64,000 nucleotides of DNA from Escherichia coli 042 (GTDB taxonomy: Bacteria; Pseudomonadota; Gammaproteobacteria; Enterobacterales; Enterobacteriaceae): NCBI RefSeq assembly GCF_000027125.1, contig NC_017626.1; one strand, written 5' to 3'. Of the stretch, positions 43,372-45,225 are shown piece after piece; the first letter of the stretch is position 1; every line of letters starts with the position of its first letter. The notes under the pieces were generated by a model. It saw only the letters and a program-made list of their open reading frames with translations, had not been told where the DNA came from and searched no databases. Position numbers and translations under genes: made by a program.

Positions 43372-45225
43372 ATGGCATTTAAACACTATGACGTGGTCAG
43401 GGCGGCATCGCCGTCAGACCTTGCGAAACGACTGACACAAAAACTGAAGGAGGGCTGGCAGCCGTTTGGTAGTCCGGTGGCCATAACCCCTTATACCCTG
43501 ATGCAGGCGATTGCAGCAGAAGGTGATGTGGTCGTCAGTGGTGCAACTGAGCCGGAGTGGTACTACGTCATCGTACTGGCCGGGCAATCCAATGCCATGG
43601 CTTACGGTGAAGGGCTTCCGCTTCCGGATTCATACGATGCGCCCCATCCGCGCATTAAGCAACTGGCCCGTCGTAACACAGTGACTCCCGGTGGTGAAGT
43701 ATGCGTATTTAACGACATCATTCCTGCTGACCATTGTCTGCATGATGTTCAGGATATGAGTACGATTAACCATCCCCGGGCTGACCTGAGCAAAGGGCAG
43801 TACGGCTGTGTCGGACAGGGCTTACATATTGCCAAAAAACTGCTTCCGTATATCCCTAATAATGCGGGGATCCTGCTGGTACCATGCTGTCGTGGTGGTT
43901 CGGCATTCACCCAGGGCACGGAGGGGACATTCAGCGAGTCCACGGGAGCCAGTCAGGATTCGGCTCGCTGGGGAGTGGGTAAGCCGTTATATCAGGATCT
44001 GCTTTTCCGCACGAAGGCAGCATTGCAGAAAAACCCGAAAAACGTTTTGCTGGCGATATGCTGGATGCAGGGGGAATTCGATATGACGAATGCCAGTTAC
44101 GCCCAGCAGCCAGCAGCATTTCTTGCAATGGTACAGCAGTTCCGTGCTGACCTTGCCGGGCTGGCAGCGCAGTGTCACGGTGGAAGTCCGGCATCAGTCC
44201 CCTGGATTTGTGGCGACACGACATACGCGTGGAAACAAGAACACGGTACGCAATATGAAGTGGTATATGGTGCATATAAAGGTAAAGAATCCCAGCAGAT
44301 TTATTTTGTTCCCTTTATGACCGATGGTAGCGGAGTTAATACACCGACAAACAACCCGTCAGAAGATCCTGATATTGCCGGGTCTGGTTATTACGGTTCG
44401 GCATCCCGAACGAACAAAAACTGGGTATCATCAAATCGCCCGACGCATTTCAGCTCATGGGCGCGTCGTGGCATTATTCCCGATCGTATGGCAACTGCTA
44501 TTCTGAACGTAGCCGGTCGCACCTTAGCCTTCATTAGTGGTAAGGCACCGGAAATCAAACCCTCGCCCGGCGGCGACACGCCATTGGGGCCGTCTGAAGA
44601 TGCATCCATACGCACAATCTCCCTGTTGCCGACAGCCGGAGACGCTGCTGCGCAGGGCTGGAGCATTAAGAATGGCGGAATTCAGTTGTCAGATGGTGTA
44701 TTTAAGATCACCAAGCAGAGCAATAAAGCCTGGTCCCTGACGCGCCCGGTGGATGACGCAGTCTCCCTGCTGACACGGGGTGGCAGACTGAGCTGTAAGT
44801 TTCGACTGTCAGGCGCACTGACCAACAATCAGTTCGGTCTGGGAATTTATCTGTATACCGATGTAGCGTTACCTGACGTCGTGGCGATGACCGGGACTGG
44901 TAACCCGTTCCTGATGTCGTTCTTCACCCAGACCACAGACGGCAAACTGAATCTGATGCATCACAAGAAAGCAGGAAACACAAAGTTGGGCGAGTTCGGG
45001 AATTACAGTAACGACTGGCAGACGCTGGAGCTGGTGTTCACCGCCGGCAGTGCCACGGTTACTCCGAAACTGAATGGAGTGGCTGGCCCGGCATTCCAGG
45101 TCATAAAAGACAGTCTGACACTGGGGCTGAATGCGCTGACGCTGACGGATATTACCAAAAATGCAGCGTATGGCGTTGAGATAGAAAGTCTGGTGCTGGA
45201 GATAAATGCACCGGCATCATCATAA
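43372..45225 (+). CDS. NanS-p-like prophage sialate O-acetylesterase (617 aa)
   Basis: esterase motif VIVLAGQSNAMAYGEG; GGGAGGA Shine-Dalgarno; position between tRNAs and lysis genes as in Stx-type phages. Confidence 0.75.
   Translation: MAFKHYDVVRAASPSDLAKRLTQKLKEGWQPFGSPVAITPYTLMQAIAAEGDVVVSGATEPEWYYVIVLAGQSNAMAYGEGLPLPDSYDAPHPRIKQLARRNTVTPGGEVCVFNDIIPADHCLHDVQDMSTINHPRADLSKGQYGCVGQGLHIAKKLLPYIPNNAGILLVPCCRGGSAFTQGTEGTFSESTGASQDSARWGVGKPLYQDLLFRTKAALQKNPKNVLLAICWMQGEFDMTNASYAQQPAAFLAMVQQFRADLAGLAAQCHGGSPASVPWICGDTTYAWKQEHGTQYEVVYGAYKGKESQQIYFVPFMTDGSGVNTPTNNPSEDPDIAGSGYYGSASRTNKNWVSSNRPTHFSSWARRGIIPDRMATAILNVAGRTLAFISGKAPEIKPSPGGDTPLGPSEDASIRTISLLPTAGDAAAQGWSIKNGGIQLSDGVFKITKQSNKAWSLTRPVDDAVSLLTRGGRLSCKFRLSGALTNNQFGLGIYLYTDVALPDVVAMTGTGNPFLMSFFTQTTDGKLNLMHHKKAGNTKLGEFGNYSNDWQTLELVFTAGSATVTPKLNGVAGPAFQVIKDSLTLGLNALTLTDITKNAAYGVEIESLVLEINAPASS

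Follow-up and report, generated by a model that had tools for sequence, protein, structure and literature searches.

The 64,000-nucleotide stretch of Escherichia coli 042 analysed here (contig NC_017626.1; hereafter the window) carries, within a lambdoid prophage, an uninterrupted open reading frame (ORF) at 43372..45225 on the plus strand, which starts with ATG and, its stop codon included in these coordinates, specifies a protein of 617 residues. Domain, sequence and structure comparisons indicate, with a probability of roughly 85%, that this gene encodes NanS-p, a prophage-borne sialate O-acetylesterase built from three domains: a DUF1737 domain (residues 1-50), a NanS-like SASA esterase domain (residues 63-385) and a lectin-like DUF6645 domain (residues 421-617). 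An initial annotation had proposed a 617-residue protein with an esterase core at this position; the ORF agrees exactly, and the core motif GQSNAMAYGEG lies at residues 71-81. The proposed kinship with NanS and NanS-p is borne out far beyond chance, given that residues 59-379 match E. coli NanS (YjhS; PDB 3PT5, E=4.5e-122) and residues 421-613 match the C-terminal domain of phi24B 'NanS-p' (PDB 6YP6, E=4.3e-30). The long C-terminal extension described at the time is also present (residues ~386-617, past the NanS-like core); the N-terminal DUF1737 domain had been overlooked. Ratios of non-synonymous to synonymous substitution (dN/dS), calculated pairwise against three homologues, are 0.08-0.28 across the three domains and about 0.19 overall (0.08-0.17 for residues 1-34, 0.09-0.14 for the catalytic domain and 0.26-0.28 for the C-terminal domain). 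Because the ratio is low in each, all three domains appear to be under purifying selection. Direct reading of the NanS-p N-terminus (MAFKHYDVVRAASPSDLAKRL...) revealed no signal peptide. No NCBIfam model matched the protein, and PHROGs places it in phrog_143, labelled 'unknown function'.

The catalytic domain is recognized by the Pfam model for the sialic-acid-specific acetylesterase family (SASA, PF03629; residues 66-262, E=9.4e-12) and is 58.4% identical to NanS over 317 aligned residues. The chromosomal enzyme shares the GQSNA, RGGSAF and MQGEFD blocks and the Ser-His dyad with the window protein, but it is a single-domain protein of ~326 residues that has neither a DUF1737 nor a lectin domain. 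Its gene belongs to the nanCMS operon of the chromosome rather than to the late operon of a prophage. For 3PT5, the active-site blocks given in a structural survey of SGNH-like hydrolases are 17-GQSNA-21, 120-RGGSAF-125, 178-MQGEFD-183 and R-x-SHFS-303 (PMC10792757). Four blocks of this NanS type are found in the window protein: GQSNA (71-75), RGGSAF (174-179), MQGEFD (232-237) and RPTHFS (356-361). Ser73 is the predicted nucleophile and His359 the predicted base. In an alignment of 23 NanS-p sequences, whose members are 55-97% identical to the window protein, residues S73, N74, G175, Q233, G234, E235, D237, R356 and H359 are invariant. One feature speaks against an entirely canonical enzyme: block IV reads RPTH, where characterized enzymes have RSSH or RASH. 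The histidine is retained, and the RPTH form has been noted for the NanS-p of phage 86 (PMC10462455). An AlphaFold2 model built from the 23-sequence alignment is poor (mean predicted local distance difference test score, pLDDT, 63.7) and served only for its well-predicted C-terminal part and as a query for the overall fold; with this model, the top Foldseek match of the catalytic part is 3PT5 (template-modelling (TM) score 0.73). As judged from the alignments, the Ser73/His359 dyad and the NanS-type blocks form an intact catalytic apparatus.

The C-terminal domain follows a Pro/Ser/Gly-rich linker that is 29% identical to that of phi24B over residues 386-420, has pLDDT values below 50 over residues 383-411 and reads KPSPGG where phi24B has RPSSPSG. 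Pfam assigns residues 467-577 to DUF6645 (E=4.4e-19). The domain is 97% identical to its counterpart in phage 86 and 36% identical to that of phi24B. In Foldseek searches with the AlphaFold2 model, it matched 6YP6 best (TM 0.80, root-mean-square deviation 2.8), followed by L-type lectins, CBM66 and sialidase-associated modules, so the predicted fold agrees with the published view of a lectin-like carbohydrate-binding module. The aromatic sugar site proposed for phi24B (Y510, Y515, Y540 and F611) corresponds to F488, Y493, F518 and L584 here, and three of the four positions thus stay aromatic. The leucine at the fourth position and the 36% identity to the solved domain weigh against a simple transfer of function; they suggest that, while the predicted sugar site is kept in outline, its binding specificity may differ.

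The N-terminal domain, which is absent from chromosomal NanS, matches Pfam DUF1737 (PF08410) over residues 3-50 (E=2.6e-15). A role for this domain has been described in phage phi24B. Its NanS-p, gp84, is among the most intense bands of purified virions, and proteomics and cryo-electron microscopy identified it as a decoration of the capsid; the latter method revealed a hexamer of the gp84 DUF1737 domain (residues 2-57) that plugs, in the T=9 capsid, the pore at the middle of the 20 face-centre hexons, with a loop carrying Tyr42 as the anchor, and the remainder of gp84 appears to be cleaved off later, with SISSP or SSP-containing linker motifs proposed as (self-)processing sites (bioRxiv 10.64898/2026.04.10.717836). 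Residues 1-34 of the window protein, which include a predicted helix, are 94% identical to gp84 (dN/dS 0.076), and residues 35-62 only 21%. The segment that differs spans the position of the anchor loop. It contains a tyrosine (Tyr41, in ITPYTL), which MAFFT leaves unaligned to gp84 Tyr42 within the 21%-identical stretch.

We compared this variable segment with the head genes downstream of nanS-p in 70 non-duplicate loci, which were taken from IMG/VR and curated phages, sampled with three queries and are related to one another. The segment occurs in three forms: variant A (PVAITPYTLMQ), present in the window gene; variant B (STAGYGAEF), present in phi24B, 933W and phage 86; and variant C (SSYTDDGAAL). 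Four head types lie downstream, namely a lambda-type head, a Traversvirus head, a BP-4795-like head with a 645-residue protease-capsid fusion, and a fourth type with a 707-residue TerL and a 738-residue protease-capsid fusion. The variant tracks the head type in 66 of the 70 loci: variant A is found with the lambda-type head (34 loci), the BP-4795-like head (12) and the fourth type (1), variant B with the Traversvirus head (9) and the BP-4795-like head (1), and variant C with the fourth type (11) and the lambda-type head (2). The association was measured as adjusted mutual information (AMI) with a permutation p value, after the loci had been collapsed to 20 unique combinations of domain and head. 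The N-domain variant gave an AMI of 0.35 with head type (p=0.003). Across the same combinations, no association with head type was found for the SASA cluster (AMI -0.14) or the C-terminal-domain cluster (-0.12), although both lie physically between the N-terminal domain and the head genes.

Other late genes of these loci, typed at 90% identity, served as controls. Their AMI with head type was 0 for the holin (one type), about 0 for the endolysin (two types), 0.12 for Rz (ten types), 0.22 for a 157-residue Q (ten types) and 0.24 for RusA (three types), compared to 0.42-0.69 for the three N-domain variants in the same loci as the controls. Shared ancestry of the phage backbone was considered as the cause of the link between N-domain and head, and is largely rejected by the little or no association seen for SASA, the C-terminal domain, holin, endolysin, Rz, Q and RusA. 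Six curated phage genomes obey the same rule. Phage 86 joins SASA and C-terminal domains like those of the window protein to a B-type N-terminal domain in a Traversvirus genome, fitting the rule within a single genome; the window prophage also fits, pairing variant A with a lambda-type head. This pattern is that expected of a capsid-specificity determinant and is hard to explain by backbone ancestry alone. As a side observation, in two IMG/VR loci (L146 and L148, a probable assignment) DUF1737 is replaced by an unrelated N-terminal segment of ~110 residues (MTSKWVQLSSMPGNF...) on the same SASA core, which suggests that the N-terminal module is exchangeable.

Tentatively, and with somewhat less than even confidence, we propose that DUF1737 determines capsid specificity through its variable half of ~20 residues: variant A would dock on lambda-type T=7 hexons, and variants B and C on the Traversvirus and fourth head types. 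Across the lambdoid phages, the classical laboratory phage 434 among them, NanS-p would then be a modular enzyme that modifies mucin and is displayed on the virion, and not a passively carried fitness gene of the bacterium. The co-variation of DUF1737 variant and head type is a modest new observation.

Several points weigh against capsid anchoring of the window protein. The co-variation loci are phylogenetically non-independent, four of the 70 break the rule, and variant A is common to two very different head types, the lambda type and the BP-4795 type. The window capsid protein shows 62% identity to its phage 434 counterpart, a homologue of lambda gpE, and no similarity between it and the capsid protein of phi24B could be detected. 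On the three-fold axis of a lambda-type T=7 capsid there is no hexon. The window head is of this lambda type, and gp84 occupies only the face-centre hexons of a T=9 capsid. The first linker of the window protein is 14 residues shorter than that of phi24B and contains no SISSP motif. Finally, pLDDT is below 50 for residues 32-38 and 44-59, and the model is too poor to judge the fold of the N-terminal domain. Because of the related loci, the four rule-breakers, the sharing of variant A by two head types, the dissimilar capsid, the T=7 geometry and the short linker lacking SISSP, we put the odds that DUF1737 docks the window NanS-p on its own capsid hexons, as in phi24B gp84, at about even.

Close relatives of the window protein are abundant. 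RefSeq genes with the annotation 'SASA family carbohydrate esterase' match the gene at 100% nucleotide identity, and the identical protein occurs on 232 contigs under such names, in a 90% cluster of 3161 members. By megablast, 2392 of the 5426 complete E. coli genomes carry nanS-p homologues, roughly 7,800 copies in all (median two and at most 13 per genome); 100%-identical copies occur in avian-pathogenic and human isolates, strain E19035 among the carriers. Among phage records, 352 contain a match to nanS-p. The best is Stx2 phage 86 (96%, from nucleotide 43548 onward), followed by Stx1a phages (86%) and phage 434 (85%).

The NanS-p proteins of Shiga toxin (Stx) phages, which include 933W L0105/z1466, phi24B vb_24B_21 (gp84), seven proteins of EDL933 and five of O104:H4, have the same three domains and catalytic blocks, lie in the same slot between Q/tRNAs and holin and likewise have no signal peptide. 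The catalytic domain of gp84 is 70% identical to that of the window protein. The window gene differs in having no stx upstream and a different variant of the second half of DUF1737, and its prophage is a lambda-type siphovirus, whereas phi24B is a Traversvirus podovirus. The nearest phage homologue is the NanS-p of phage 86 (YP_794050.1; 'sequence 20' in PMC10462455), in which the 96% nucleotide identity extends from 43548 past the stop codon and the RPTH motif is shared. Its SASA domain is 96% identical to that of the window protein; its N-terminal domain and linker are of the phi24B/933W type, which places a recombination junction at the border of DUF1737 and SASA. The esterase of phage 434 (UMO75335.1; 616 residues) has the variant A core PVAITPYTLMQ, lies upstream of the holin in a phage with a lambda-type head, and differs in its linker sequence, its Q82-like Q, its other upstream genes and the lack of tRNAs. 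Phage 434 is a convenient model for virion association of NanS-p. Its nanS-p homologue (locus L165, OL657226.1 43456-45306) lies inside the region that separates 434 from 434B.

Chromosomal genes of the opp-tonB-yciABC-ompW region occupy the window from position 1 to ~20 kb, and the lambdoid prophage follows, from its integrase to past the window end. The gene order around nanS-p is RusA, Q, a small ORF, a methyltransferase, three tRNAs, a 975-nucleotide non-coding stretch, nanS-p, holin, lysozyme, Rz/Rz1, Nu1/A terminase and a lambda-type head and tail (Table 1). The head genes are of the lambda type (Nu1/A/W/B/C/D/E); the module from TerL to the capsid protein spans 49138..55852 on the plus strand and encodes the structure to which DUF1737 would have to bind. 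The initial annotation had placed the gene in the late-operon slot used by Stx phages, and the order Q, methylase, three tRNAs, nanS-p, holin, lysozyme and Rz indeed matches that of phages 86 and phi24B. The tRNA region and its phi24B counterpart are 90% identical, and the 500 nucleotides 5' of nanS-p are 77-78% identical to the stxB-nanS-p interval of phages 86 and phi24B, in which stx sits between the tRNAs and nanS-p. The locus therefore has the layout of a Stx-phage late region without the toxin genes. The first tRNA, with a CAT anticodon, is called Met by ARAGORN and tRNA-Ile by RefSeq; its phi24B equivalent is annotated as reading AUA.

The equivalent of the stx slot is filled by copies of the small RNA (sRNA) STnc100 on the plus strand. 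Two are strong (42472-42662 and 42940-43149; 136 and 165 bits against an Rfam gathering score of 47), and a third (42701-42874) is weak and below threshold. The copies are direct repeats of 80-100% identity, and each closes in a terminator-like hairpin; the scan placed terminator-like sites at 42632, 42845 and 43119. In a 2026 preprint on Pas sRNAs, STnc100 is linked to PasD and the layout PasD/STnc100, esterase, PasA/C, holin is reported as common, with PasA/PasC placed between esterase and holin. The corresponding spacer here (45226-45375, plus strand; 150 nucleotides) ends in a 12-bp hairpin with a T-run (45308-45336) and matched no Rfam family.

Table 1 Features of nanS-p and of the surrounding late region.
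Feature	Position	Strand	Basis
Late antiterminator, Q-like, 273 residues	39652..40473	+	Annotated 'antitermination protein' in 99%-identical stretch of NZ_CP126926
Putative pR': TTGATT, 16-nucleotide spacer with TGg, TAAATT at 40501-40506	40479..40579 region	+	Own reading; under the scan's 9/12 threshold
tR'-like terminator with T-run	40556-40571	+	Terminator scan
DNA methyltransferase (methylase)	41048-42097		Gene order
Three tRNA genes: CAT anticodon; Arg-TCG; Arg-TCT	42147..42396	+	ARAGORN, Rfam, RefSeq annotation
STnc100 sRNA copies (stx-slot equivalent)	42472..43149	+	Rfam
Last terminator-like hairpin 5' of nanS-p	43247..43272	+	Scan
Shine-Dalgarno GGGAGGA, 4 nucleotides 5' of ATG	43362..43368	+	Direct reading of sequence
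nanS-p coding sequence	43372..45225	+	ORF list; Pfam DUF1737, SASA and DUF6645; PDB 3PT5, 6YP6
DUF1737 domain, residues 1-50	43372..43521	+	Pfam PF08410
DUF1737 variable segment, residues ~32-50, variant A (FGSPVAITPYTLMQAIAAEG, with Tyr41)	43465-43521	+	Comparison with phi24B gp84
Short linker, residues 51-62 (GDVVVSGATEPE)	43522..43557	+	Alignment with phi24B
NanS-like SASA/SGNH-type catalytic domain, residues 63-385	43558..44526	+	58.4% identity to 3PT5
Predicted nucleophile Ser73	43588-43590	+	Maps to 3PT5 Ser19 by alignment
Predicted base His359	44446-44448	+	Maps to 3PT5 His301 by alignment
Pro/Ser/Gly-rich inter-domain linker, residues 386-420	44527..44631	+	Low conservation; low pLDDT
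C-terminal jelly-roll domain (DUF6645), residues 421-617, putative carbohydrate-binding module	44632..45222	+	6YP6, Pfam, Foldseek
Class II holin	45376-45591	+	ORFs; RefSeq annotation of 99%-identical stretch
Lysozyme (endolysin)	45967-46500	+	ORFs; RefSeq annotation of 99%-identical stretch
Rz	46799-47263	+	ORFs; RefSeq annotation of 99%-identical stretch
Rz1	47019-47201	+	ORFs; RefSeq annotation of 99%-identical stretch
TerL	49138-51108	+	ORFs, annotation
Portal	51295-52887	+	ORFs, annotation
C-type protease	52877-54382	+	ORFs, annotation
D-like decoration protein	54419-54766	+	ORFs, annotation
E-like major capsid protein	54824-55852	+	ORFs, annotation

Directly after Q, a putative weak extended -10 promoter is followed by a strong terminator, from which we infer, by analogy with lambdoid phages, a pR'-tR' arrangement. 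At least seven terminator-like hairpins lie on the plus strand within the ~2.9 kb between Q and nanS-p, and the scan found 17 terminator-like sites within 40300-45700 where 5.1 were expected. No sigma-70 consensus promoter was found on the plus strand from Q to nanS-p by the scan, which a weak promoter could escape; a promoter of its own for nanS-p is unsupported, since the scan gave no such consensus. In published work, mitomycin C raises the expression of nanS-p homologues by 1-2.4 log alongside stx (PMC10462455). Most likely, NanS-p is transcribed by Q-dependent read-through alone and released at lysis. The terminators, the gene position and the quantitative PCR data on homologues suggest that the gene would be silent in the repressed lysogen and transcribed only once Q antiterminates the late transcript after induction. 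NanS-p would then build up in the cytoplasm and exit only at phage lysis. The 273-residue Q is unusually long and contains several CxxC motifs; the same type is found in 20 related loci, and no NCBIfam model matched it.

Outside the cell, NanS-p would strip 7-, 8- and 9-O-acetyl groups off sialic acids, whether free or bound to mucin, and would be directed to glycans by its C-terminal domain, and the resulting N-acetylneuraminic acid would be catabolised by surviving sibling lysogens, as shown experimentally for the EDL933 and O104:H4 homologues. The earlier expectation that such esterases act on mucin sialic acids and benefit the lysogen is supported by characterized homologues. Those active on 5-N-acetyl-9-O-acetylneuraminic acid (Neu5,9Ac2) include 933W z1466, seven proteins of EDL933 and five of O104:H4, and all tested EDL933 and O104:H4 proteins enable growth on Neu5,9Ac2 and take acetyl groups off mucin glycans (review PMC8065619). 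With about an even chance, DUF1737 would in addition dock NanS-p on capsid hexons, so that the enzyme is displayed on the virion, at least transiently.

The initial annotation also took nanS-p to be a fitness gene of the lysogen rather than a phage structural gene. In this form, NanS-p would be pure lysogenic-conversion cargo, a soluble esterase that is freed at lysis and serves the bacterial population, with no virion role. This explanation is a serious contender, if somewhat short of an even chance. It accords with the growth of lysogens on Neu5,9Ac2 that homologues support (PMC8065619) and with the position of nanS-p, which lies in the slot of cargo genes such as stx and not in the head or tail module. 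Neither lambda itself nor the Stx2e/f/g phages carry the gene, which is therefore dispensable for morphogenesis, and in T=7 geometry the site bound in phi24B has no counterpart. A study of Sp5 morphogenesis left its nanS-p homologue outside the genes tested (PMC5155283). Yet pure cargo leaves unexplained why a 50-residue N-terminal domain that chromosomal NanS lacks is under purifying selection, and why its variable half changes together with head genes that lie 6-10 kb away when the intervening genes do not. The phi24B homologue, moreover, is physically on the capsid, which it decorates via DUF1737. The claim that nanS-p is no structural gene of the phage is thus doubtful, and the view of NanS-p as pure cargo, neither shown nor excluded, may be wrong.

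If NanS-p is displayed on the virion, its substrate could also be a glycan of the bacterial surface (O-antigen or O-acetylated K1 polysialic acid), de-O-acetylation of which would aid adsorption or escape. Capsid display shown for phi24B and the K1 type of several carriers of the identical allele (for example O2:K1:H5 and APEC O18) are compatible with such a role, raised as a possibility in a review (PMC8065619). However, many strains whose records carry no K1 designation have the identical allele too, an enzyme mounted on the capsid is badly placed to reach receptors, in contrast to one on the tail, and the catalytic domain is nearest to a monomeric-sialate esterase; we consider this role improbable. 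Far less probable still is that the gene is an inactive relic decaying in a defective prophage. In its favour, the annotation of a near-identical prophage marks a ydfR-like gene close by as frameshifted, and truncated nanS-p copies occur within the same 90% cluster. This reading is already contradicted by the sequence: the 617-residue ORF is intact and has a strong ribosome-binding site, the catalytic blocks are all invariant, the overall dN/dS is low, the identical protein is found on many contigs and the prophage retains complete lysis, head and tail modules.

Elsewhere in the prophage, a cluster of regulatory RNAs lies on the minus strand of the early-left region, comprising C4 antisense RNA (25810-25897), IsrK (25922-25998) and DicF (26238-26289), all above the gathering score. 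A Sok antitoxin RNA (35332-35507, plus strand; 117 bits) corresponds to a hokD locus annotated in a related prophage. Compared to avian pathogenic E. coli (APEC) E19035, the prophage early region (~24.8-39.2 kb) is mosaic and positions 39275-48522 are 99.3% identical; a frameshifted IS4-family transposase of ~1.1 kb between adhE and tdk in that strain is missing from the window (about 2723-2733).

This copy of nanS-p is already known and very common. Its exact protein is in RefSeq, and the family has been characterized genetically, biochemically and structurally, stx-negative prophages included (nanS-p in non-Stx prophages has already been noted in the literature), so that the single instance adds little. 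What the locus illustrates is that the late-region cassette of Stx phages, consisting of Q, tRNAs, sRNAs, nanS-p and lysis genes, rides in a stx-less lambda-type prophage of extraintestinal and avian pathogenic E. coli. The default annotation of the NanS-p family as non-structural cargo should end. If the head-matched DUF1737 domain is indeed a capsid anchor, it would provide a portable tag for enzyme display on lambdoid capsids, and nanS-p in pathogen genomics would be read in terms of phage adherence to and penetration of mucus as well, and not of bacterial nutrition alone.

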